A stretch of 64,000 nucleotides of DNA. Origin: an uncultured Gammaproteobacteria bacterium (GTDB lineage: Bacteria > Patescibacteriota > Patescibacteriia > JAHIZJ01). Positions 1,397 through 49,270 of the stretch are shown piece by piece. The position numbers and the translations under genes are program-made. Position 1 is the first letter of the stretch, and each line of letters begins with the position of its first letter. The DNA lies in the NCBI GenBank assembly GCA_964371245.1, contig CAYJKP010000001.1, positions 53,128-117,127 on the forward strand, written 5' to 3'. Below the pieces are notes generated by a model. It searched no databases. It saw only the letters and a list, made by a program, of their open reading frames with translations, and was not told the origin of the DNA.

Positions 1397-2830
1397 TTAT
1401 TCCTCGACCGTGTTTGTTTCGGCCGCTACGCCGCTCAGGTCCAGCCGTGAGAGCATGTATTTGCCGAGCACGTCTTTAACCGGTTTGATCGAGCCGAGGC
1501 CGACGAGTGCCAAAGTATCTTGTTCATCCGTTTTCACCCAGCTCGGCACAGTCTGGCCGGAAACAAGGTCGAAGAAATGCATCAGGAAGGTGGTGGCATA
1601 AACGCCTTTCGGAAGGGTGAAGCTTAGTATCACGCCCTCAGGCGTTATCCGCGAGGCGTGAATATTTGGTTTAATGATTGTAGCCACGTTCCGTTTGGCC
1701 GGTCGGATAAACGGGAAAGGTTTAATATGTTGAAGAAAGTTTTCGGTTTGATCCGCTTGCAAATACGAGGCATACGGTTGGTGGTCGGCCGGGTCAGCGC
1801 TTAACAGCAGGGGCAATGTTTCGGGCAGCGGTTCACCATTTATTGTGGCGTCGGATAGTTTCTTGTTGAAGAGATAGCTGACGTAGGCATAGACCCAGAG
1901 CCGCACATGCTCGGAAATGCACGCCAGCGCGCCGATCGGATCGTCCGGGCGCTGTTTTAGATATTCCAGGACTTTAAGCTCGTTTCGGAACGAATACGGG
2001 AAACGTTGGAATTCGGCCAGCATGGCCCGGCCATTCTCGAACAGTGTCTGGACTTTTTTGCGCACCGCCTGGAAATACGGCGGCTCGGACTCGTTCGTGC
2101 CGGCTAGGTACATCCGCAGCGCTTCAACATATTTCCCTTGCATGACCAGCCGGCCGAATTGATGGACGGAAAAGCGGCTGCCGAATCGCTGGACGCCATA
2201 GTAGTTTAAAAACCCCTTGGTGCGATATTCCTCTAGTCGCTGGTCTAACCATTTTTGCTCGACCGGTTTTTCGGTCCGGACAAAGATGGTGAAACGGTTG
2301 CCGAAGAGTTCACCGACATTAACCACGCCCTTGCCATAGGAAAAGTTCTTCAGGTACAGCCCCGGTATTGAATGGCTGGTCAGTTCTTCGTATTTCACGT
2401 TTCGAAGGCTGATCCGCTGGCTGGTGACGGCAACGGCGTCTTTGATGCCAGCGTGCCCGACCCGTTTTGGCTCCAGCTGCAACGTTTCACACAACCGTTG
2501 GATGGCCTCAAGCGTGAACACGCCGACTTTGATCAAATCAAAAAAAAGCGTTCGTTGATCGGTGGCGTCGGAAGGCGGCGCGGGCGCTTCGGGGATAACC
2601 GTTCTCACCGTCCCGTCGAGCGCCACTTCCTCGACGATAAAATCTTGAAGATAGAGACGATAATAGCCGCGCACGCGATCGGCCGGCAAGGCGGTGATGC
2701 CAATGTGTTCGAGGATGCGCCGGGGATTGAGCTTTTCGTCATATTGAAACCACTCCGGTTTTTCGCGGCGGAGCTGGTCAATGTATTGGCGCTCTTGTTC
2801 CCAGAGTTCGTGGGAAGAGGTATGCGTCAT
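1397..2830 (-). CDS. truD: tRNA pseudouridine(13) synthase TruD family
   Basis: 477 aa. Contains the GIKD-like region and the NYYGVQRFG motif characteristic of TruD/Pus7 pseudouridine synthases. Confidence 0.8.
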   Translation of the reverse strand: MTHTSSHELWEQERQYIDQLRREKPEWFQYDEKLNPRRILEHIGITALPADRVRGYYRLYLQDFIVEEVALDGTVRTVIPEAPAPPSDATDQRTLFFDLIKVGVFTLEAIQRLCETLQLEPKRVGHAGIKDAVAVTSQRISLRNVKYEELTSHSIPGLYLKNFSYGKGVVNVGELFGNRFTIFVRTEKPVEQKWLDQRLEEYRTKGFLNYYGVQRFGSRFSVHQFGRLVMQGKYVEALRMYLAGTNESEPPYFQAVRKKVQTLFENGRAMLAEFQRFPYSFRNELKVLEYLKQRPDDPIGALACISEHVRLWVYAYVSYLFNKKLSDATINGEPLPETLPLLLSADPADHQPYASYLQADQTENFLQHIKPFPFIRPAKRNVATIIKPNIHASRITPEGVILSFTLPKGVYATTFLMHFFDLVSGQTVPSWVKTDEQDTLALVGLGSIKPVKDVLGKYMLSRLDLSGVAAETNTVEE

Positions 2831-3276: not shown

Positions 3277-6177
3277 ATGGCCGATAAAATCACAATCAAG
3301 GGCGCCCGCGTCCATAATTTAAAGAATATCAGCCTGGAAATACCCCGAGACAAACTGGTGGTTATCACCGGCATCTCCGGCTCGGGAAAATCGTCGTTGG
3401 CTTTTGATACGATTTACGCCGAGGGGCAACGTCGCTACGTCGAATCACTTTCGGCGTATGCCCGCCAGTTTTTAGGTTTGATGGACAAGCCGGACGTGGA
3501 TCAAATTGACGGTTTGTCGCCAGCCATTTCGATTGATCAAAAATCAACCTCGCATAACCCGCGTTCGACCGTTGGTACGGTAACTGAGGTGTATGATTAT
3601 CTCCGGCTGCTCTTTGCCCGGATCGGAATCCCGCATTGTCCGAAGTGCGGCCGCGAAGTCTCGCGTCAGACCGTCGATCAGATTGTTGAACGGCTTTTGG
3701 ATTTGCCAAACGGAACGAAAATCCACCTTCTCGCCTCGTTGATCAGGGATCAGAAGGGCGAGCATAAAAACGTGCTCGAAAAAATCCGCCGCGCCGGCTA
3801 CGTCCGCATCCGTTTCGATAGCCTCATCTACACGCTCGAGGAAGCGGCTGAGCTGGTGGTTGATAAAAACAAGAAACATACGCTCGAAGTATTAGTTGAT
3901 CGCTTGGAGATATCGGATGACATGCGAAAGAAAGCGGCGCGCAAGGAAGCGCAAACAGCTGATCGAACACGCCTGGTTGAGTCAGTCGAAACGGCGCTTG
4001 ATCTCGGTAGCGGAGTGATCTATATCCAGGTTGAGGGCAAAGACGAAGACCTGATCTTCAGCCAGCACTTTGCCTGCACCAAGTGCGATATCAGTTTGCC
4101 GGAAATCGAGCCGCGCAGCTTCTCATTCAATAATCCCCACGGCGCCTGTCCTGATTGCACCGGTCTTGGCACCAAGCTCGAAATTGACGCCAATTTAATC
4201 ATTCCCAATAAAAAGCTGACCCTGGCTGAAGGTGCGGTCCGACCGTGGTCGCGGACCTCGGCCAACCAAACCTGGTATTTTCGGGTGCTTGAAGCGGTGG
4301 CGAAAGCGCACGATTTTTCTGTCAATGTGCCGATCGAAAAATTGACGAAGGAACAGCTGAAAATCGTGCTCTATGGTACCGGCGGCCAGACCTACGACGT
4401 GAACAACGAATTCGCGGGTGGAAAAGTGCGCGAACTCTGGACGACCTTCGAAGGCGTTATCCCGAACCTGGAGCGGCGGTATAAGGAAACCGATTCTGAT
4501 TACATCCGTTCGGAAATCGAGCGGTATATGCGCATCTATCCCTGCCCGACTTGCCAGGGGAAACGCTTGAAACCGACTGCTCTGGCGGTAACCGTCGGCG
4601 GGAAGTCAATTGACAAGGTTGTCGCGTTGACGATCGACCAAACAATGGAATATTTTGACGGTCTGACGGTGAAGAAAGGCAATCCGGCGGTACTCTCCGA
4701 ACGCCATCAATTCATCGCCCGGCAGATTATTAAGGAAATCAAAAGCCGCTTGCTTTTCCTCCACAATGTTGGTCTTGATTACCTGACCATTGATCGGGCG
4801 GCGGCCACTCTTGCCGGCGGCGAAGCCCAGCGGATTCGGCTGGCCACCCAAATCGGCTCGAGCCTGACAGGTGTGATCTATATCCTTGACGAACCGTCGA
4901 TCGGCTTGCATCAGCGCGACAACGATAAATTAATTGATACGCTCAAGCGCCTGCGTGACCTGGGAAATACCGTGATTGTCGTCGAGCACGACGAGAATAC
5001 GATCCGGACGGCTGATCATGTCGTTGACGTCGGTCCCGGCGCCGGCGAACACGGTGGCGAGATCGTCGCGCAAGGGACGCCCGCTCAGATCATGAAGCAT
5101 CCAAAGTCATTGACCGGCAAATATCTCTCGGGCACGCTTTCAATCGACCCACCGAAGAAATATCGGTCGGGGAACGGCAAAACGTTAAAAGTAATCGGCG
5201 CCGAGGAATTTAATCTGAAAAAAGTCGATTTAACGATCCCGCTCGGAAAATTTGTTTGTGTCACCGGCGTCTCCGGTTCGGGCAAGTCGACCCTAGTGAC
5301 AGAAATCCTGGCGCGGGCGCTTTCGCAGTATTTCTATCGCTCAAAGGAACTGCCGGGCAAGCACAAGGAAATTCAAGGCCTCGAACATCTTGATAAGGTG
5401 ATCAATATCGACCAGTCGCCGATCGGCCGGACGCCGCGCTCGAACGCCGCCACCTACACTGGCGTCTTCACCTATATCCGCGACCTTTTTACCCAGATTC
5501 CTGAGGCAAAAATCCGCGGCTACAAGGCCGGCCGATTTAGTTTCAATGTGAAAGGCGGACGGTGCGAGAATTGCCAAGGCGAAGGCTACACCCGGATCGA
5601 AATGCAGTTTTTGCCGGACGTGTATGTTGAATGCGAAGAATGCCACGGACAGCGCTATAACCAGGCGGCGCTTGAAATTCATTATAAAGGCAAGAACATC
5701 GCCGATATTCTTGACTTGACGGTTGAGGAAGGCTATAAATTTTTCGAAAACATTCCGGCCATCCGCCAAAAACTTCAAACCCTGATTGATGTCGGTTTGG
5801 GTTACATCCATCTCGGTCAATCAGCCACGACCTTGTCCGGCGGCGAAGCTCAGCGGATCAAATTGGCGACCGAGCTTTCCCGGCGGGCCACGGGTCGAAC
5901 GCTCTATATTCTGGACGAGCCGACGACCGGTTTGCACTTCGAAGACGTCAAGCGTCTGCTCCACGTTTTGAACAAGCTGGTTGACAAAGGCAATACCGTC
6001 CTTATTATTGAGCACAATTTGGACGTCATCAAATCCGTTGACTGGATTGTTGACCTCGGTCCTGAGGGCGGAGACAAAGGGGGAGAAATTATCGCCGAAG
6101 GTACACCGCATGAAGTGGCTAAGGAAAAAAAGTCATACACCGGGCAATATCTGAAAAAAGTGTTCGAGATAAAGTAA
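3277..6177 (+). CDS. uvrA: excinuclease ABC subunit A (UvrA)
   Basis: Two ABC ATPase modules with GISGSGKSS and GVSGSGKST Walker A motifs, LSGGEAQR signatures and zinc-finger Cys clusters. Start chosen at [15 protein letters not shown]; the ORF track begins at an upstream GTG. Confidence 0.95.
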
Positions 6178-16067: not shown

Positions 16068-16157
16068 GGAGAGGTCGCATAGTGGTCGAGTGCGCTTGCT
16101 TGGAAAGCAAGTAAGGGTGAAAGCCCTTCGAGGGTTCGAATCCCTCCCTCTCCGCCA
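16068..16157 (+). tRNA. tRNA-Ser (anticodon GGA), type II, CCA encoded
   Basis: Cloverleaf deduced by hand: acceptor GGAGAGG/CCTCTCC, anticodon stem CTTGC/GCAAG, loop TTGGAAA, long variable arm, T-loop TTCGAAT, discriminator G plus CCA. Confidence 0.9.
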
Positions 16158-16356
16158 ACGCTGGAGCGAAGCGGAAGCGAATCTGAAATATTAACAGGGA
16201 TTCGAAGGGCAGAAGCGACCCAGCACCGAAGCGAAGTGCCTAGTGCTGGGGAGCGCCGATCGCTCCGAGCTAGCGTAGGAGCGAGCGCTGCCCCGGACAT
16301 AAATCCCTCCCTCCTAGCAAGCTTAGTGAATAATTACGTAACCACGGAGTAAAAAA

Positions 16357-41330: not shown

Positions 41331-41356
41331 ACTTCGTTAACATTACCTAGGCTAAT

Positions 41357-42187
41357 ATGTATCTTCTCTTCGATATCGGAGCCACCAACCTTCGCCTCGC
41401 CGTTTCGAGTGATGGGAAAAAGCTGGAACATTGTTGTAGCATTCCAACGCCACAAAATTTTCGCGATGGCCTCGAGATACTGAAAGATATGACAAACAAA
41501 CTTACCCATGGCCAGAAGATAAAGGCTGTCGCCGGTGGTACCCACGGCATGCTAAATAAAAATAAAACCAGCATCGTCAGCTGCCCGCATTTGCCCGGTT
41601 GGATCGGGAAACCGTTAGTACCGGCATTGCGGCAGATGTGGCACTGTCCCGTCTCACTTGAAAATGACGCGAATCTTGCCGGTCTCGGGGAAGCGACCTA
41701 TGGCGCCGGCCGTCGCTACCCAATTGTCGCTTTTTTAACGATCAGTACGGGTGTTGGCGGTACGCGCATCTATAATAAACGTTTTGAGGCGAATGCCATC
41801 GGTTTCGAGCCTGGCCAGCAAATTATAAACGCGGATCGTCCAGCTTTTCTGCCGAACCAGTCCGGCCGTCTCGAAGGGTATATATCAGGCACGGCGCTGG
41901 GGAGGAAGCATGGCCGAACGTCAAATAAAATTACCAATCAGAAGGTCTGGCGGGAATTTGAACAATACCTCGGCTATGGCCTGGTAAATGTCGTGCGTTT
42001 TTGGTCGCCGCATGTTATAGTGTTGGGAGGCGGCGTGATGGAAAATCGGCATATTTCGTGCCAACGGTTGAATAACAACCTGCGTCGTATGTTGCCAAAG
42101 ATTCCGATTTTGCCGCGTGTTGTCCGCGGTAGGCTGGGGCAACGGGCGGGGTTGTACGGCGCCGTAGCCTGGCTCGCCCAAAGATAA
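41357..42187 (+). CDS. ROK-family sugar kinase / regulator
   Basis: LFDIGATNLRLAV N-terminal ATPase motif, LENDANLAGLGE and ISTGVGG. Confidence 0.7.
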   Translation: MYLLFDIGATNLRLAVSSDGKKLEHCCSIPTPQNFRDGLEILKDMTNKLTHGQKIKAVAGGTHGMLNKNKTSIVSCPHLPGWIGKPLVPALRQMWHCPVSLENDANLAGLGEATYGAGRRYPIVAFLTISTGVGGTRIYNKRFEANAIGFEPGQQIINADRPAFLPNQSGRLEGYISGTALGRKHGRTSNKITNQKVWREFEQYLGYGLVNVVRFWSPHVIVLGGGVMENRHISCQRLNNNLRRMLPKIPILPRVVRGRLGQRAGLYGAVAWLAQR

Positions 42188-42204
42188 TACGTACTATCAA
42201 TCAT

Positions 42205-42342
42205 ATGCCAAAACCCATTACGGAATTACAGGTAAAGACGAAACCCTCAGTCGGACGCGTGATCGTCACCATTCTTTCGGTGGTATTTGTGGCTTCCGTG
42301 TTCGTTCTCTTTGGCTTCATCGTCTTAACGTCACGATCGTAA
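42205..42342 (+). CDS. very small hypothetical membrane protein upstream of dnaG
   Basis: 46-aa ORF with a single strong TM helix (VIVTILSVVFVASVFVLFGFIVL). Not in the ORF track, and the RBS is weak. Confidence 0.25.
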   Translation: MPKPITELQVKTKPSVGRVIVTILSVVFVASVFVLFGFIVLTSRS

Positions 42343-42385
42343 ACTCGTTCCGCCATCATGAAGGTGTGCCAACCCGAAAGCACTC

Positions 42386-44224
42386 TTGTCAAACAAGACG
42401 CTTTTTGATTATATAACCCTGCAGAACATTACAATACACACTGTGGGAAACCCAACCGAAGAAATAAAAGCAAAATTGGACATTGCCGAAGTGGTTCAGG
42501 AATACGTTAAACTGACGCGCGCCGGCACGAATTACAAAGGACTCTGTCCGTTCCATCGGGAAAAGACCCCTTCTTTTATGGTTTCTTCGGACAAGCAGAT
42601 ATTCCATTGTTTCGGCTGCGGCGAGGGCGGGGACGTCTTTAGCTTTGTGATGAAGATAGAAGGCGTTGAATTTCCTGAGGCACTCCGGGTGTTGGCGGCG
42701 AAAGCCGGGGTGAAATTGGAACCGCGGAATCCACAGCTGGAAAACCAAAAGACGAAACTGCTGGATATCAACCGATTGGCAGCCGCCTATTTTCATAAAG
42801 TCCTGCTTGAATCGTCGCAGGCGGCGGTGGCACGCGAGTATGTCAAGAAACGAGGCATAAGCGAACTCACGATTGAAGAGTTTAAAATTGGCTACAGCGT
42901 CGAAGACTGGGAAGCGCTCCAGTCGTTTCTCCTAAAGAAGGGCTATACCGCGGAAGAAATTTTTGACGCTGGTTTATCTATTAAGAAAGAACGCGGCGAC
43001 GGCTACTATGATCGTTTCCGCGGCCGGCTGATGTTTCCGCTGGCTGACGTTCATGGTCAGATAGTCGGCTTCGGCGGCCGAATTCTGGTGACGAAGGACG
43101 GGACCGCCGCCAAATACGTCAATACCCCTCAAACGGCGGTCTATAACAAAAGCGCTTTGTTATTTGCCTTAGATCGGGCAAAGAAGGAGATCCAAAAACA
43201 AAAGTTGGCCGTGGTTGTCGAAGGCTATATGGACGCGCTGTCGTCGCACCAGGCCGGGGTGGAGAACGTTGTTGCCTCGAGCGGGACGGCGTTAACCCAA
43301 GATCAGGTTCGGCTGTTGCGCCGGTACTGCCAAACTGCAGCGCTGGCGTTTGATACGGATCCGGCCGGTTCGGAGGCAACGCGGCGAGGTTTGGAAATCG
43401 CCTGGCAGCACGAACTGGAAACGCGGATTGTTGAATTGCCGTTTGGCAAAGACCCCGACGAATGCATCCAGAAAGATCCGGCTGCCTGGAAACAAGCGAT
43501 TGCGAAAGCCCGACCCTTCATGGAATTCTACTTTGACAAAACATTCAAAGAAACGAACTTGGCCACCGTCGAAGGAAAAAAGCAGGCCGCCAAGATACTC
43601 CTGCCGCTGATCAGCCACCTGCCAGATCAAATTGAGCAAACGCATTACCTCCAAAAGCTGGCGTCAGCCATCCATGTCGAAGAACGACACCTGCGAGACC
43701 GTCTTCCAAAAGCCCGCCAGGCGCCGGCGACACCGACAACCGCCGCTCCAACCGTCAGGACAAAAGACCGGGTCGAACGCTTGAGCGAGTTGGTGCTCGG
43801 CATCGCCTTAAAATATCCGGAACACCTTGAATACATTATCCAGAACATACAGCCGGAGTATCTCAAAGGGGAAGGTTTAGCCGAACTTTACAAGATAGTG
43901 GTTATCTATTATACTAAGGCTACCTCAGTAATTAGCGATGAGCTTTTTGCCGAGATTGCACGTCAAAATAGCCAACTTTCAGAAAAAGCGAAAACGCTTC
44001 TTCTCCTGGCTGAGACAATTTTTGAGGAACAGGCCGAGACGGACGAGTACCGCAAAGCGCTGATCGAGGCCGTTCCGGTTCTCAAGAAGCAGTCTTTATC
44101 GCGCACGCTGAGACAGCTCCAGGATGAGCTGAACACAGCCGAAGCTCAGCGCGATCAACCGCGTATTCAAACTCTTTTAGAAAATATTACGAGTTTGACT
44201 GAAGAATTAGGACATCTTTCGTAA
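42386..44224 (+). CDS. dnaG: DNA primase DnaG
   Basis: Zinc ribbon CPFHREKTPSF...CFGCGEGG, TOPRIM EGYMD, and a C-terminal helicase-interaction domain. Confidence 0.9.
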   Translation: MSNKTLFDYITLQNITIHTVGNPTEEIKAKLDIAEVVQEYVKLTRAGTNYKGLCPFHREKTPSFMVSSDKQIFHCFGCGEGGDVFSFVMKIEGVEFPEALRVLAAKAGVKLEPRNPQLENQKTKLLDINRLAAAYFHKVLLESSQAAVAREYVKKRGISELTIEEFKIGYSVEDWEALQSFLLKKGYTAEEIFDAGLSIKKERGDGYYDRFRGRLMFPLADVHGQIVGFGGRILVTKDGTAAKYVNTPQTAVYNKSALLFALDRAKKEIQKQKLAVVVEGYMDALSSHQAGVENVVASSGTALTQDQVRLLRRYCQTAALAFDTDPAGSEATRRGLEIAWQHELETRIVELPFGKDPDECIQKDPAAWKQAIAKARPFMEFYFDKTFKETNLATVEGKKQAAKILLPLISHLPDQIEQTHYLQKLASAIHVEERHLRDRLPKARQAPATPTTAAPTVRTKDRVERLSELVLGIALKYPEHLEYIIQNIQPEYLKGEGLAELYKIVVIYYTKATSVISDELFAEIARQNSQLSEKAKTLLLLAETIFEEQAETDEYRKALIEAVPVLKKQSLSRTLRQLQDELNTAEAQRDQPRIQTLLENITSLTEELGHLS

Positions 44225-44331
44225 ATAATCACGTATACGACTAACTTTGTTCCTACGGGGACACTGATAGATCGGGCCTGTCGTTGGAAGGATAGCGTCG
44301 TCGGATCTATCGGATAGTTAGACATTTTTCT

Positions 44332-45552
44332 ATGTCAAAAACAAGCAAGCCAAAAAAGAAGAAGCCGTTAGTGAAACACAAGACGCTAAAAGCGAAGAAA
44401 CCAAAGGGGAAGGCGCATCCGAAGAAAACCGCCAAGTCGGCTGTTTCCAAGAATCAAATTCAGGAAAAACCGATAATGTCCGAAGGAGCTCAAGCGGCAC
44501 TCGTTCGTAAGGGACGAATGCGCGGTTTTATTACTGAAAAGGAAATTCTCTATGCCTTGCCCGAAGTGGAAGAGTATTTGGAGGCCTATGAACACCTTTT
44601 GGACACGTTTGACGAGCTGGGAATTCGAGTCATGGAGACCGACGCGGGCATTCTTGATCATGCCGTCGGTGATCAGCAGTTTCTTGATCGCGGTAAGGTT
44701 GACAGCCAGCGTTTTGACCTGAGCGACATTTCAGACGATTCAATTCAGATGTACCTTCGAGAGATTGGAAAAGTACCGCTCCTAACTGCTGATGAAGAAA
44801 TTCAGCTCGCCAAGCGGAAAGAAAAAAGCGACGTAGAAGCCGCCAAGCGCATGGTCCAGGCGAATCTGCGTCTCGTCGTCTCGATCGCGAAAAAATTCAC
44901 TGGCCGGTCGCTCTCCCTCCTTGATCTGATCCAGGAAGGAAACATTGGTTTATTCCGAGCTGTTGAAAAATTTGACTATCGGAAAGGATATAAATTTTCG
45001 ACCTACGCTACCTGGTGGATCCGACAGGCCATCACCCGGGCCTTGGCTGATCAATCTCGAATTATCCGTATTCCCGTGCACATGGTCGAGACGATCAATA
45101 AATTTCAACAGATTGAACGGCAGCTGATACAGGACCTGGGACGCGAGCCGCTGCCTGAGGAGATCGCGGCAGAGATGGGTGAGGAAGTCGAGAAAGTCCG
45201 CCACATCATGAAAATATCGCAGGACACGGTTTCCCTGGAAACGTCGGTCGGCGAGGATGACGAGGACTCGACACTCGGCGATTTTATCGAGGACGAAAAA
45301 ACAATCTCGCCCGATCGCGTGGCCTCACTGCAGTTGCTCAAGGATCACGTCAAGGACATTATTAGGGAACTGCCGCCCCGGGAACAGAAAATACTTGAGA
45401 TGCGTTTTGGTTTGATGGACGGCGTGTCGCATACGCTTGAAGAAGTCGGCCAGGAATTTGGCGTGACGCGTGAACGTATCCGGCAGATCGAGGCCAAGGC
45501 GCTTGAAAAAATCCAGGAACACGTGGGCATGAAGAAACTGCGGGATTATTGA
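44332..45552 (+). CDS. rpoD: RNA polymerase sigma-70 factor RpoD
   Basis: Basic N-terminal tail. Region 2 ([38 protein letters not shown]), region 3, and a region 4 HTH. Confidence 0.95.
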
Positions 45553-45579
45553 GTCGACTAAAAGCATAGGCCCCTCTGC

Positions 45580-45651
45580 TCCGCGATAGCTCAATGGTAG
45601 AGCAACCGGCTGTTAACCGGTAGGTTGTCGGTTCGAATCCGACTCGCGGAG
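45580..45651 (+). tRNA. tRNA-Asn (anticodon GUU), no encoded CCA
   Basis: Hand-folded: acceptor TCCGCGA/TCGCGGA, D-stem GCTC/GAGC, anticodon stem ACCGG/CCGGT, loop CTGTTAA, T-loop TTCGAAT. Confidence 0.88.
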
Positions 45652-45659
45652 CTGAGGGG

Positions 45660-45878
45660 CTTTGTTGTTATGATTTATAGCTCAATGGGTCGAAGCGGCC
45701 GCTGCGAGCGACTGAACTGCTTCAGTCGCGTGCCGCTGAGACGGGCTGGCCGATGTCTTTGACCGGCCAGCACCGGAAGAGCAACCCCCACCAAAGACGG
45801 GTGAGCCTCTGGCTGAGGCTGTTAACCGGTAGGTTGTCGGTTCCCCCGGATCAGGGTCCGGTGCGACTCGCGGAGCAC
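45660..45878 (+). other. structured partial duplicate of tRNA-Asn with three hairpin-rich insertions
   Basis: Repeats ATAGCTCAATGG, GAGCAACC and a 27-nt exact copy CTGTTAACCGGTAGGTTGTCGGTTC plus CGACTCGCGGAGC. Inserted segments contain perfect hairpins (GCGACTGAA/TTCAGTCGC; CTGGCCG/CGGCCAG; CCGGA/TCCGG). Confidence 0.4.
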
Positions 45879-45938
45879 CGCAGGGATTTGTTTATTATAT
45901 GGAAAAAGCAAATAATGCGCACAATATTGTTGAAATAC

Positions 45939-45967
45939 TTGCTATTTTAATATTTTTGTGATATAAT
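45939..45967 (+). promoter_or_regulatory. sigma70-like promoter TTGCTA-N17-TGaTATAAT (extended -10)
   Basis: Hexamers with a 17-nt spacer and TG at -15/-14, 60 nt upstream of the protease gene. Confidence 0.45.
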
Positions 45968-46027
45968 AGAAACGTCAATTAGAAACAAAAGACGTAGAAA
46001 AAACAGAACCCATTTAAACAAAGCCAT

Positions 46028-49000
46028 ATGAATAAGCCTATAAAGCTTGGTCTCGCTCTCCTTCTTGGTGCAGCGTTTTTTATTTTGCATAGTAATACCG
46101 CCAGCGCCGAAGATGTAGTCTTACATGGTCGTGAGGCGCAATTGCCGCTCTCAACGTCTGGAAAGGTGGTTGTGAAATATAATGAGCAACTCGTGAAACT
46201 AGCGGAAGAAAGCGGTCAGTATCAGGCTTCGGTCATGGCCGGGGTGCATGCCCTTACCGAAGACGCATTACACGAAGACCAAAACCTTGGCGTTTTTTCG
46301 ATCCGTGACGGCAAAACCATTGCTTCAAAAATTGAAGAATTGCAGCACAACCCACTCGTCGATTACGCCGAGCCGGAATACCTATATTATCCCGAAAGCA
46401 CGACGCCAAATGATTCATACTATTCTCTTCTTTGGGGTTTGAATAACACTGGCCAAACAGTCAACGGCACGAGCGGCACGGCTGATGCTGATATTGACGC
46501 GGCCGAAGCCTGGGATATTGCACGAAACGCGAGCGATACCATCGTGGCGGTCATTGATACGGGCGTCAACCTCAGTCATCCCGAACTATCGGCCAGCATT
46601 GTTCAGGGCTATGATTTTGTTGACGATGATACCTCACCGTATGACGTCGGCGGTCATGGCACGCACGTGGCCGGTACAATCGCCGCGCGTGGGAATAACA
46701 GCGACGGCGTTACCGGTGTTTCCTGGAGCGCGAAAATTATGCCGATCCGCGTCCTCGGCATCGGGGGCGGCACGAACTCGGATATTGCCGACGGTATCCG
46801 CTACGCCGTCGATCATGGAGCAAAAGTACTGAACATGAGTTTGGGCGGGACCGGCTATAGCCAAGTGTTGTATGACGCAATTGATTACGCGAAGACACAC
46901 GACGTGTTAGCCGTGGTCGCCGCCGGAAACGACGGTCGGAACAATGACGGCGGTACCCACACCTATCCCTGCGATTATGACCTCGACAATATTATCTGCG
47001 TCGCAGCAACAACGCAAACTGACGCCCTGGCCAGTTTTTCCAATTACGGTACAACCTCGGTCGACGTGGCGGCGCCGGGTACAAACATCATGAGCACCTA
47101 TCCCGAGCCGGCGCTGATCGAATATTTTGATAATGCCTCGCACGCGACGATGTACGGGTACGATTTCACCGGTACGGACTTTACGGTCAGCGGCGATTCC
47201 GCGCCACAGGGCTGGATCGTCACCGACGTCTCGGGAGACAAATGGGCGCAGGCGTGGTATGGCGGGCCGTACAATAATGTTGATACGTACATTACGTCGA
47301 CGAGCATCAGTCTCAGCGGAGAGCATTCAATTCTCTTGAAATTCACCTACGATTTTTTAACAGAAAGTTCACCCACGGAGGCGTGCGAATACGATTATCT
47401 CGGGATCGACGTGTACAACGGTTCCAGCTGGACGACAGTCGATAAATTATGCAATTATTTCGGTGATCCGTGGGGCGGCGGCGAGGCGTTGGATGTCGCT
47501 GAATATGATCTGTCGGCGTATGCGGCGAGTGCGACCAAGGTCCGATTTCATTGGCACACGGATGCGACGGGCGGCAGTGCAGGCTTTTTTATCAATAATG
47601 TCTTTGTTTATAAAACCGGCGAAAGCTACACCTATCTCAATGGAACTTCAATGGCCACGCCGCACGTCGCCGGTCTGGCCACCTTGCTCCGGGGGTACAA
47701 GCCGAGCGCGAGTTATTCGCTGGTCAAAGAGGCGATAACCGATTCGGTCGACGCAAAGAGCTCACTGAGCGGAAAAATAGTGACCGGCGGCCGGATCAAC
47801 GCCTATGCCGCTGTGTCCTCGCTCGACGGAACGCCACCGACGACGTCGCTGTCGCGCAATCCCAGCGGTCCGAATGGCGACAACGGGTATTATGTGACCG
47901 TTCCCTCAATCACGCTGCGCGCCACCGATTCCGGCTCGGGAGTGGCGAAAACATATTATAAATGGGACAGCGGCACATATTCCGAGTATCACGGCTCAAT
48001 TCCGGCGCCGGAAGGGGTTCATGTGCTCAAATATTATTCAACTGATTTGGCGGGAAATCGCGAAACGACCAAGAATAAAAAATTCAGGGTCGACACCCAT
48101 CACCCGCGGATAGAATTTACCCGTTCACTGTATCGAAACACGACCCTTTCCGCCCAGCGGACAATATCCGGAACGGGCAAGGATGGCGGCTCTCGGCTGA
48201 AGTATGTCATGATGAACGGCACGCTGCTGCCACTGAGCAAAGGGGTATTTAGCACGGCTGTAACCCTGAAGGATGGTTTAAATAAATATACGTTCGTCGC
48301 GAAAGACAACGCTGGCAATAAAACCACAGTGATTAAGTATGCGTATTACCGAAACGGACGCGTGCTCGGCACGGCCGCACCCGTCGAACGTATCATCACA
48401 ACCGCTCATCCCGGTCGTCCTCCTCAGGTCAGGATTTTTGACAAAAAAGGGACGTTGAAAAATCAATGGTTTGCCTACGGGCAAGATTTCAAGACGGGCG
48501 TAAGCTTGGCCACCGGCGACGTGAACAACGACGGTCAAGCCGAGGTGATCGTCGGTCCGGCCGGCGTTGACGCGTCGCTCGTAAAAGTGTTTACCCAGAA
48601 AGGTACCCTTCTAAAACAGTGGTATGCCTATCCGGCTGAGTGGCAGATTGGCGCCACCGTGGCAACAGGCGACGTCAACGGCGACGGGACAATCGAAATC
48701 ATTGTTCTCCCGGCCGTAAAAAAACCGGCCCAAGTAAAAGTATTTACGTATTCAGGCAGGCTCAAATATCAATTCTTTGCTGACACGGCGCCCACCTTGC
48801 TGAATCTGGCCGTCGGCGACGTCAACGGCGATTGGAAAGACGAAATCATTGTTTCAGCGACAGCCGGCTCCGGACCTGAGGTGCGCGTTTATACCTACAA
48901 AGGGAAATTGGCTTATCGCTTCAATGCCTATGCCCCGGGTTTCCGCGGCGGCGTTGAAATTGCAGCCGGTGATGTAAATAACGATAAAAAAGACGAGATT

Positions 49001-49270
49001 ATTACGGGCGTCATGGGTGCTGGCACCAGCCAGGTTCGGGTTTTTAAAAGGGATGGTACGGCCATAAACCAATTTTTTGCCTATGACCTGAGTTACCGTG
49101 ACGGCGTGACGATGGCCTCGGCCGACATCAATGGTGACGGCAAAGATGAAATAATCACTGGGACGGCGCCGGGGCAATCAGGCATTGTTAGGACGTTTAA
49201 GAAAGACGGTTCGCGCGTAAGCCAATTTTTCGCCTTTCCAAAGGAATGGCCGATCGGCGTGAAACTATAA
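46028..49270 (+). CDS. secreted subtilisin-like (S8) serine protease with C-terminal FG-GAP repeat beta-propeller
   Basis: Signal peptide. I9-like propeptide. Catalytic triad motifs AVIDTGV, HGTHVAGT and GTSMATPHVAG. Five or more GDVN(G/N)DG..EII FG-GAP repeats. Confidence 0.85.
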   Translation: MNKPIKLGLALLLGAAFFILHSNTASAEDVVLHGREAQLPLSTSGKVVVKYNEQLVKLAEESGQYQASVMAGVHALTEDALHEDQNLGVFSIRDGKTIASKIEELQHNPLVDYAEPEYLYYPESTTPNDSYYSLLWGLNNTGQTVNGTSGTADADIDAAEAWDIARNASDTIVAVIDTGVNLSHPELSASIVQGYDFVDDDTSPYDVGGHGTHVAGTIAARGNNSDGVTGVSWSAKIMPIRVLGIGGGTNSDIADGIRYAVDHGAKVLNMSLGGTGYSQVLYDAIDYAKTHDVLAVVAAGNDGRNNDGGTHTYPCDYDLDNIICVAATTQTDALASFSNYGTTSVDVAAPGTNIMSTYPEPALIEYFDNASHATMYGYDFTGTDFTVSGDSAPQGWIVTDVSGDKWAQAWYGGPYNNVDTYITSTSISLSGEHSILLKFTYDFLTESSPTEACEYDYLGIDVYNGSSWTTVDKLCNYFGDPWGGGEALDVAEYDLSAYAASATKVRFHWHTDATGGSAGFFINNVFVYKTGESYTYLNGTSMATPHVAGLATLLRGYKPSASYSLVKEAITDSVDAKSSLSGKIVTGGRINAYAAVSSLDGTPPTTSLSRNPSGPNGDNGYYVTVPSITLRATDSGSGVAKTYYKWDSGTYSEYHGSIPAPEGVHVLKYYSTDLAGNRETTKNKKFRVDTHHPRIEFTRSLYRNTTLSAQRTISGTGKDGGSRLKYVMMNGTLLPLSKGVFSTAVTLKDGLNKYTFVAKDNAGNKTTVIKYAYYRNGRVLGTAAPVERIITTAHPGRPPQVRIFDKKGTLKNQWFAYGQDFKTGVSLATGDVNNDGQAEVIVGPAGVDASLVKVFTQKGTLLKQWYAYPAEWQIGATVATGDVNGDGTIEIIVLPAVKKPAQVKVFTYSGRLKYQFFADTAPTLLNLAVGDVNGDWKDEIIVSATAGSGPEVRVYTYKGKLAYRFNAYAPGFRGGVEIAAGDVNNDKKDEIITGVMGAGTSQVRVFKRDGTAINQFFAYDLSYRDGVTMASADINGDGKDEIITGTAPGQSGIVRTFKKDGSRVSQFFAFPKEWPIGVKL

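Follow-up and report, generated by a model that had tools for sequence, protein, structure and literature searches.

The 64-kb stretch of DNA analysed here, called the window throughout, comes from a Patescibacterium of the candidate phyla radiation (CPR) and carries, shortly downstream of rpoD, an intact tRNA-Asn(GUU) gene that is followed 25 nt later by a second, broken copy of itself, which we call the ghost (45670-45900). Between 45677 and 45876 the ghost consists of four collinear blocks derived from the intact, or live, gene with 61/62 nt identical, separated by three GC-rich inserts designated A, B and C (Table 1). ARAGORN calls two tRNA genes in the window, tRNA-Ser(GGA) at 16068-16157 and the tRNA-Asn at 45580-45652, and the latter also matches Rfam RF00005 with 76.1 bits at 45580-45651. 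A first-pass annotation, made from the letters alone, had described a clean tRNA-Asn(GUU) gene at 45580 whose parts recur downstream, and both observations held, with four collinear direct repeats recovered (12/12, 11/12, 27/27 and 13/13). The remaining 62,509 positions of the window share about 23 9-mers with the tRNA, a background so low that the four-block match stands far above chance.

The 27-nt exact copy that the annotation had singled out (45608-34 recurring as 45817-43, 27/27) runs from position 30 of the anticodon stem to position 56 of the T-loop. Block 2 belongs to the repeat GGTAGAGCAACC, in which 45596-607 matches 45775-86 (GG plus positions 21-29) at 11/12, and, as the annotation had stated, the copy has no match to the 5′ acceptor strand. 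All three GC-rich interruptions listed in the annotation are present, but the third is not a clean insertion: insert C takes the place of five T-loop and T-stem bases (GAATC) and is a substitution. Insert A replaces one D-loop base, forms two strong hairpins (45701-45736 and 45745-45771), and has no relative, a BLAST search against all fetched loci returning only its self-match. The hairpins that had been named (GCGACTGAA/TTCAGTCGC, (G)CTGGCCG/CGGCCAG(C) and CCGGA/TCCGG) are all found in the sequence and form in both the minimum free energy (MFE) and centroid structures, dominating the predicted fold.

Two scans that the annotation had proposed gave no support for a second tRNA or a structured RNA. 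ARAGORN at default settings, with or without introns, reports no tRNA in 45653-45900, and an Rfam scan of the same interval at gathering threshold or at E<=10 yields neither a second tRNA nor any other family. Compared with a complete-cloverleaf tRNA model, the ghost has lost the 5′ acceptor strand and T-loop bases. In silico removal of the three inserts left ARAGORN with 0 genes, still 0 after repair of the 5′ acceptor, and a tRNA-Asn was called only once the T-loop bases had been restored as well; therefore no excision could give a tRNA. An intron-containing tRNA gene was consequently ruled out, given that precise insert removal leaves no canonical tRNA. In terms of archaeal-type bulge-helix-bulge processing, the exon set of the ghost is incomplete and the inserts fold as self-contained hairpins without exon pairing. 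Group I introns (RF00028) have no match in the window in either Rfam mode, and the inserts were rejected as group I intron debris for want of similarity to the introns of relatives. YrlA/bacterial Y RNA (RF02553) reached at best 15.2 bits against a gathering threshold of 69, mostly over the real tRNA, and no rsr-like gene occurs among the neighbours of the locus; Rfam matches to YrlA, to an internal ribosome entry site and to other families all fell far below threshold. The ghost is probably not transcribed, since predictions place it behind a terminator-like stem and T-run and find no promoter-like site before it.

Table 1. Features of the tRNA-Asn locus in window coordinates, with tRNA numbering for the ghost blocks
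Feature	Coordinates	Strand	Basis or remark
Leader arm GCCCCTCTGC	45570..45579	+	Pairs with trailer, lengthening the live tRNA acceptor stem
Functional tRNA-Asn(GUU), no CCA encoded	45580..45652	+	ARAGORN; Rfam RF00005
Trailer arm TGAGGGGC, then T-run TTTGTTGTT	45653..45669	+	Terminator-like site 45646-45665 and T-rich tail
ATGATTT in place of 5′ acceptor strand TCCGCGA	45670..45676	+	Upstream of ghost block 1
Ghost block 1, ATAGCTCAATGG, tRNA positions 7-19	45677..45688	+	Direct repeat of 45586-97, 12/12
Insert A, D-loop, 89 nt, GC-rich	45689..45777	+	Inverted repeats; fold
Ghost block 2, AGAGCAACC, tRNA positions 21-29	45778..45786	+	Direct repeat; k-mer map
Insert B, decayed 30-nt double-hairpin element, between positions 29/30	45787..45816	+	Match to the double-hairpin element of L009
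Ghost block 3, tRNA positions 30-56	45817..45843	+	Direct repeat of 45608-34, 27/27
Insert C, 20-nt hairpin CCGGA-TCAGGG-TCCGG	45844..45863	+	Sequence; 19/20 in L001 at 4575-4594
Ghost block 4, CGACTCGCGGAGC, tRNA positions 62-73 plus one base	45864..45876	+	Direct repeat of 45640-52, 13/13
Old trailer of the ghost and T-run ACCGCAGGGATTTGTTTATTAT	45877..45900	+	Sequence; homologous in L001; analogy with live copies

A double-hairpin element and GIY-YIG genes at related loci

Relatives of the locus were obtained by RpoD-based retrieval from GTDB genomes, which returned 80 loci (numbered with the prefix L), all from Patescibacteria/CPR (Kerfeldbacteria, Uhrbacteria and relatives) and headed by L001 at 96%. 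Viewed beside these loci, insert B is a decayed member of a family of double-hairpin elements (DHEs). It is identical to a DHE of L009 at 26/30 positions and occupies the same site, with BLAST extending the match to 94% over 64 nt including flanks; its length is exactly 30 nt, and its stems pair at 4/6 and 5/6. A DHE comprises 30 nt in two adjacent 6-bp GC-rich stems with 3-nt loops (consensus TCCGCC-AGA-GGCGGA TCAGCC-TCT-GGCTGA) and is a near-perfect palindrome overall. The 29/30 junction of tRNA-Asn ghosts is the precise site of DHEs in the window, L003, L009 (twice), L021, L081 (twice), L094 and L101, and their insertion neither adds nor removes flanking bases.

Alignment of 21 DHE copies, with pairing tested against 500 shuffles and slid registers, revealed base pairing in 98% of cells. 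The window copy accounts for 3 of the 5 mispaired cells and is therefore decayed. Changes on both sides were seen at 7/12 pairs (31 cells), a level reached by 0/500 shuffles, and pairing collapses in every slid register. The alignment contains no G-U pairs and no one-sided intermediates; the lack of G-U pairs, together with the triloops, argues for selection on DNA hairpins, on both strands, over selection on RNA. In 636 kb, 10/13 DHE-family copies are located in tRNA ghosts, and DHEs also stand in ordinary intergenic DNA (L006 at 538, L032 at 2959 and L026 at 2782). The 64-kb window holds no other DHE. A metagenome pattern scan produced 9 matches, 7 of them from an unrelated lineage whose leader contains AGAGCAACC by chance.

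A complete tRNA-Asn in the metagenome contig L081 (~712-850; Ga0172362_10297725, identical in L089) carries two exact DHEs, at 12/13 and 29/30, and deletion of both leaves a perfect ARAGORN tRNA-Asn. Beyond this gene come a 5′ ghost, a DHE and the first part of a GIY-YIG open reading frame (ORF), which is cut off by the end of the contig. No target-site duplications were found at tRNA insertions, the removal in L081 restoring the exact tRNA; the sole possible target-site duplication seen is an exact 8-bp direct repeat, TAATATCT, on both sides of the intergenic DHE of L006 (538-567).

An ORF of ~80 aa, assigned by Pfam to GIY-YIG (PF01541), lies between a 5′ ghost and the live tRNA in L003, L009 (twice), L021 and L046. 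Searching with the L003 ORF retrieved >260 closely related proteins, the majority of them Patescibacterial and none with a domain other than PF01541; NCBIfam has no model for the family, and the nearest solved structures are uncharacterised UPF0213 proteins. Together, the contexts of nine further ORF relatives and the rpoD loci supplied 12 distinct core-family genes. In 12/12 of these loci the ORF stop codon falls -10 to +45 nt from the start of an intact tRNA (Asn, Pro(TGG), Val(TAC) or Ile(TAT)), and in 10/12 a DHE stands 14-73 nt upstream of the ORF with a duplicated 5′ tRNA piece directly before it. The order of the composite is a duplicated 5′ tRNA piece, a DHE (usually ending ...GGCT), the GIY-YIG ORF and an intact tRNA, and it is present in L003, L009, L021, L046, L081, L090, L092, L094 and L097-L103. 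In several cases the last ORF codons overlap the first tRNA bases, often the first 9-10 nt, and the element therefore seems to carry a restoring 5′ part of the tRNA. A second DHE and the rest of the old gene follow the live tRNA in L009, L094, L021, L099 and L102.

The composites of L090, L092, L097, L098, L099, L101 and L102 come from different Patescibacterial groups and one metagenome-assembled genome labelled WOR-3. Directly after the GIY-YIG/tRNA-Asn module of L098 lies a 314-aa ORF (1486-2430, minus strand) with a recombinase zinc ribbon (PF13408, Zn_ribbon_recom), the only recombinase seen beside these modules.

The window presents the composite in part: a displaced tRNA fragment and a DHE beside an intact tRNA with its own leader and trailer. 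The GIY-YIG ORF is missing from it, and we therefore regard the window as a footprint of a composite, not a member. By analogy, its arrangement would be the 3′-ghost half of a composite, extended to position 7 and with two extra inserts. Literature searches found no paper joining GIY-YIG genes, palindromic elements and tRNA ghosts in Patescibacteria; for CPR, a 2024 study reports no more than a sparse occurrence of GIY-YIG ORFs in rRNA insertions other than introns.

Ghost segments of at least 9 nt within 700 nt accompany 31/51 tRNAs in the fetched loci and the window, at a background of ~1 match per 5,600 positions, and segments of at least 12 nt accompany ~19 tRNA-Asn genes. Inserts in the ghosts of relatives occur at 12/13, 16/17, 21/22, 29/30, 44/45, in the T-loop, and at 62/63 and 68/69; the ghosts are typically broken up by GC-rich hairpins, and many relatives have 3′ ghosts starting in the T-loop. 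The 5′ ghost leader of L009 pairs with the 3′ ghost trailer, which indicates that the two ghosts are halves of one former gene split by the ORF and tRNA module. In L031 the ghost is a tRNA-Asn of the window type and the live gene is divergent in sequence, which indicates replacement of the resident gene by a foreign copy. Compared with its L094 homologue, the ghost of L021 contains two additional inserts, and that of L045 has one more than L068; thus, inserts accumulate in ghosts. A hairpin element of 44 nt, CCCGCCCGCAACGCCTCGCAAGCTCGGCTTGCGTGGTGGGCGGG, recurs with ~97% identity in L001 (4519-4562), L009 (5200-5240) and L003 (4259-4290, reverse), where it occupies three tRNA-Asn positions in both orientations within hosts whose RpoD is 71-96% identical to that of the window. 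Its occurrence at different positions implies that the inserts are mobile DNA rather than sequences evolved in place.

Group I introns (RF00028) are found at 35/36 of the orthologous tRNA-Asn in L024 (96 bits), L002, L004 and L028, and split-exon matches point to further group I introns in L003, L010, L018, L041 and L061. Patescibacterial introns of this class at 35/36 of tRNA-Asn/Asp have been published (Nakagawa et al. 2026, PMC13011429). Some of the tRNA-Asn introns seen here reach 540-670 nt, a length at which an ORF is probably present; ARAGORN fails to call such genes, matching the 2026 report (PMC13011429). Overall, the sequences indicate that the tRNA-Asn gene after rpoD has been repeatedly invaded by small selfish elements in this lineage. 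L045 (4288-4540) and L068 (4211-4400) have the same live tRNA and ghost with the trailers exchanged between the two copies, which suggests recombination between tandem copies, and the anticodon loops of their ghosts are CTGCTAA and CTGGTAG rather than CTGTTAA.

Surroundings of the locus and divergence from its nearest relative

The nearest relative, L001, matches the window in two parts only. The left one comprises the leader and tRNA positions 1-19, the right one tRNA positions 45-55, insert C, the 3′ strand and the spacer downstream. L001 keeps only the 3′ third of the ghost, in which block 4 has decayed to CGACTCGAAAAGC, and its middle is a different nested cassette made of a hairpin, an AT-rich spacer and a new leader-tRNA-trailer. 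The comparison with related genomes that the annotation had suggested thus found the ghost unit unconserved in this relative. Identity over the shared non-coding stretch is 172/194 (0.89), and identity at 4-fold sites is 0.86 in the adjacent S8 gene (n=415) and 0.61 in rpoD (n=128). Measured against the S8-gene neutral baseline, the shared ghost part diverges at a neutral rate, and purifying selection on it was rejected. Overall identity is 88.4% in the left flank and 94.2% in the right flank (window 41332-48550), a jump that suggests a recombination or horizontal-exchange breakpoint at the tRNA-Asn locus. Between L006 and L011 the inserts are 88% identical versus 60% at rpoD 4-fold sites, with one compensatory stem change; synteny of this pair ends at the ghost, and the 88% figure has no independent neutral baseline.

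The leader and trailer of the live gene form an inverted repeat (45570-45586 / 45644-45660; 17 nt, 94% complementary) whose stem is present in both the MFE and centroid folds. Leader arm, trailer and T-run look like an intrinsic terminator of the rpoD-tRNA transcript, and the same stem and T-run lie 3′ of the live tRNA in L001, L006, L011, L021 and L012. A leader/trailer stem of 7-14 bp with a T-run encloses each live tRNA-Asn of the window, L001, L003, L006, L009, L011, L012, L021, L045 and L068, the pairing being kept across lineages with entirely different sequence. Such a stem may act as a terminator that holds the tRNA in its loop, serve in processing, or mark the two ends of a cassette.

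The genes at the locus run in the order ROK, dnaG (42386-44224), rpoD (44332-45552), tRNA-Asn, ghost and an S8 protease/FG-GAP gene (46028-49270), the last with its own promoter-like site at 45939-45967; a VTT protein is a further neighbour. Linkage of rpoD and tRNA-Asn is conserved widely among the relatives, and an exact-protein lookup found no identical protein on record for the window RpoD. A small ORF at 45753-45950 has no Pfam family match and was treated as spurious.

The tRNA-Ser(GGA) gene also has a 3′ ghost (16198-16314), in which GGGATTCGAA, a 95-nt GC-rich structured insert (16207-16301) and AATCCCTCCCTCC represent the T-arm and acceptor 3′ strand with a T-loop insertion. A 16-nt stretch of this insert (...GCGCTGCCCCGGACA) is common to the T-loop insert of the L022 tRNA-Asn ghost, and L020 and the second tRNA-Asn of L094 have similar large inserts in the T-loop. 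Neither inserts A, B and C nor the tRNA-Ser insert have a second copy within the 64-kb window, which rules out a high-copy miniature inverted-repeat transposable element (MITE) in this genome. The motif GCGAAGC/CGAAGCG recurs in the window (45689-45720 and 16158-16260) and in inserts of L006, L011, L020, L021, L022 and L031; d(GCGAAGC) is an unusually stable DNA mini-hairpin, and the motif fits structure at the DNA level. Complementarity at 8/8 positions links the end of insert A (GCACCGGA, 45770-45777) with that of insert C (TCCGGTGC, 45857-45864), an unexplained match that may be chance. The 3′ end of the ghost, TCGCGGAGCA (45868-45877), is 10/10 complementary to the live leader and 5′ acceptor strand (45577-45586), as a result of the duplication.

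Origin of the ghost

We consider it likely that the ghost is a non-functional relic, and favour, with distinctly less assurance, its origin as a displaced and decaying tRNA-Asn copy left by a GIY-YIG/DHE element; it is probably not a working RNA. The proposed mechanism would begin with a GIY-YIG nuclease promoting insertion of its own gene into a tRNA gene, in the style of homing or of a mobile ORF. The element would bring a replacement tRNA part or a whole tRNA, and the host would retain its essential single-copy gene. Pieces of the resident gene would be pushed aside as 5′ and/or 3′ ghosts, with a DHE marking the junction and possibly serving as a site of nuclease or recombination action. 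Ghost pieces would then gather further palindromic elements and decay, their tRNA-derived blocks perhaps kept live-like by gene conversion. In the window, the live tRNA with its own terminator stem would be the functional replacement, and the ghost would be the displaced resident gene, truncated at position 7, DHE-tagged at 29/30, and later struck by two more GC-rich hairpin insertions (A and C). The locus would thus represent a late stage, with the nuclease gene lost and the DHE decaying.

Within this proposal we infer that the live tRNA-Asn gene is the incomer, that the hairpins act at the DNA level, and that the near-identity of the ghost blocks to the live gene stems from gene conversion or recency; the putative nuclease would power the invasions, whether through homing or through recombination, with the tRNA or the DHE as the site. 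More tentatively, the composites may define a tRNA-gene-specific family of homing elements in which an ~80-aa GIY-YIG gene is partnered with a 30-nt cruciform DHE as junction, recognition or att-like site, a conjecture that we rate somewhat below even. Such elements would insert into Asn, Pro, Val and Ile tRNAs with a replacement 5′ part or whole tRNA, and solo DHEs and other GC-rich hairpins would be non-autonomous derivatives favouring displaced tRNA pieces. A more radical variant, in which tRNA genes that are perfect but for exact 30-nt inserts, as in the L081 copy, would have these cut out of the RNA, is scarcely credible to us.

Several points weigh against an origin from a GIY-YIG/DHE element. 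The link to GIY-YIG rests on one decayed DHE and on relatives, and neither six-frame HMM (hidden Markov model) searches nor tblastn found a GIY-YIG ORF or remnant in the 64-kb window. Inserts A and C have no identifiable family. Blocks that are 61/62 identical stand beside a decayed DHE, and gene conversion or a recent origin is therefore needed. Ghosts are remarkably common for genomes so streamlined, the proposal does not explain the presence of a DHE on either side of the ORF and tRNA module, and the L006/L011 conservation raises the prospect that some ghost structures may be maintained, selfishly or for the host.

A plain tandem duplication of tRNA-Asn with subsequent decay, on which unrelated MITE-like or REP-like (repetitive extragenic palindromic) sequences landed in a lineage with no endonuclease element, would accommodate the missing GIY-YIG gene, the DHEs in ordinary intergenic DNA (L006, L032 and L026) and a nearly full-length ghost in tandem with the live gene. 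We nonetheless judge it unlikely from where the palindromes lie: three inserts fall within a ghost of ~70 nt and none in the adjacent 130-nt AT-rich spacer, the DHE is the only one in the window and sits at the exact 29/30 junction of ORF-bearing relatives, and DHE-family copies are concentrated in tRNA ghosts as noted above. Function presents a different alternative, in which the ghost is a structured RNA or DNA derived from tRNA that serves as a decoy for tRNA nucleases, as an aid to processing or stability of the rpoD-tRNA transcript, or as an immunity or att site. The near-identical tRNA-like blocks, the compensatory changes that preserve hairpin stems across the DHE family, the L006/L011 inserts that are more conserved than rpoD 4-fold sites, the frequency of ghosts in reduced genomes and the complementarity of TCGCGGAGCA to the live leader and 5′ strand could all be read in its favour. 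Such a role is improbable, however, given a unit unconserved between the window and L001, three stem-breaking changes in the window DHE, neutral evolution of the shared part, a terminator-like site upstream with no predicted promoter, an overall ghost fold z-score of only -1.78 and the lack of any Rfam match. On the same grounds (the upstream terminator-like stem, the decayed DHE and the neutral rate of the L001-shared part), we likewise hold improbable the structured tRNA-derived non-coding RNA that the annotation had envisaged.

The annotation had also raised an att-type duplication, and its core notion of a remnant displaced by a mobile element survives in the origin favoured here. Its specific form, attL/attR duplication by an integrase island or prophage that entered tRNA-Asn and was later deleted, is very improbable. 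A partial tRNA beside a complete one is a classic integration footprint (PMC9897764), 3′ ghosts of many relatives begin in the T-loop, and the recombinase-like ORF of L098 adjoins a tRNA; against this, no integrase lies near the locus, whose neighbours are dnaG, rpoD and the S8 protease, the copies are merely 25 nt apart, and relatives hold GIY-YIG ORFs rather than integrases between ghost and live gene. We therefore rejected an integrase att-site duplication, the duplicate being interrupted and spanning positions 7-73 with no contiguous 3′ core. A genuine bacterial tRNA with several intervening sequences removed at the RNA level, like the multi-intron or split tRNAs of archaea, would be suggested by the exact 30-nt insertion of insert B at 29/30, by the L081 tRNA-Asn that is perfect after removal of two DHEs, and by insert positions resembling non-canonical intron sites of archaea. 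This idea, which the annotation had put forward, fails in the window on the absence of a tRNA call, the missing 5′ acceptor strand and T-loop, the excision tests and the unconserved unit in L001; an intact tRNA-Asn lies 25 nt upstream, the DHE has no G-U pairs and has 3-nt loops that point to selection at the DNA level, no bulge-helix-bulge geometry is evident (not formally scored), and mitochondrial double-hairpin elements are reported as not removed from transcripts (PMC2800124). We give it almost no weight.

Relation to known systems

Fungal mitochondrial mobile endonuclease ORFs (mORFs), described in Allomyces atp6 and in Glomus atp6, atp9, cox2 and nad3 (PMC3630166), appear by analogy to be the closest mechanistic parallels. 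As in those systems, an endonuclease ORF would move with part of its target gene to leave a functional hybrid or replacement and a displaced native fragment, and the displaced copy in L031 is native-type beside a divergent live copy. Unlike fungal mORFs, the targets here are bacterial tRNAs, the element takes along either a 5′ part or an entire tRNA, the protein is a bare ~80-aa GIY-YIG domain, and the window itself has no ORF. Mitochondrial double-hairpin elements, repetitive hairpin-forming elements and yeast GC clusters are also near parallels; the double-hairpin and GC-cluster elements cause no target duplications and are reported to stay in transcripts (PMC2800124). DHEs share with the mitochondrial elements short GC-rich hairpin pairs that are dispersed and apparently mobile, the lack of target-site duplication, an occurrence in intergenic DNA and structural RNA genes, and a link with mobile ORFs. 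In contrast, DHEs are Patescibacterial, 30 nt long with 6-bp stems and 3-nt loops, and are concentrated in tRNA ghosts and at the junction of GIY-YIG/tRNA cassettes; the likeness is one of architecture, and no sequence homology is claimed.

A free-standing GIY-YIG homing endonuclease within a tRNA cluster is known in SegB of phage T4 (PMC2330249, PMC13096335). SegB resembles the CPR genes in lying among tRNA genes, and it favours its own transmission along with the adjoining tRNA DNA and can give rise to segmental duplications. The Seg proteins are larger, with DNA-binding domains, and have no described double hairpin or displaced tRNA fragments, whereas the CPR GIY-YIG proteins are predicted nucleases known here from sequence. 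Partial tRNA genes also arise as by-products of mobile-element integration (van der Gulik et al. 2023, PMC9897764; Williams 2002 cited there). The window resembles such attL/attR partial genes in having a complete tRNA beside a dead partial copy, consistent with an element that targets and restores the tRNA, and differs in lacking an integrase or multi-kb island, in a near full-length copy 25 nt off, in its three hairpin inserts, and in relatives whose element is an ~0.4-kb GIY-YIG ORF plus palindrome. The published Patescibacterial group I introns share locus, host phylum and gene with the present system, RF00028 introns occurring in L024, L002, L004 and L028, whereas the window has no RF00028 match and its inserts are 20-89-nt hairpins at other positions; the report on those introns makes no mention of ghosts, hairpin elements or GIY-YIG genes (PMC13011429).

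The window copy is like archaeal multi-intron tRNA genes in its several short inserts at non-canonical positions, with related inserts at different positions. It is unlike them in being incomplete, so that insert removal gives no tRNA. The multi-intron and split tRNA genes of Thermoproteales and Nanoarchaeum are complete, with introns cut at bulge-helix-bulge motifs by a splicing endonuclease of a kind not known in bacteria.

The ghost is therefore ordinary in kind, and the GIY-YIG/DHE element family behind it appears new, being undescribed in the literature searched. For annotation, insertion-riddled CPR tRNA copies should be read as relics rather than as exotic intron-bearing tRNAs or new non-coding RNAs. 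For the biology of the host, streamlined Patescibacterial genomes of ~1 Mb would harbour an active micro-ecosystem of selfish DNA on single-copy tRNA genes, made up of group I introns, minute GIY-YIG nuclease cassettes and 30-nt palindromes. Their activity would remodel an essential locus that coincides with a recombination breakpoint. The system is a bacterial counterpart of the mobile ORFs and double-hairpin elements of mitochondria, and it offers as candidates a minimal, putatively site- or structure-specific nuclease and its 30-bp palindromic partner.

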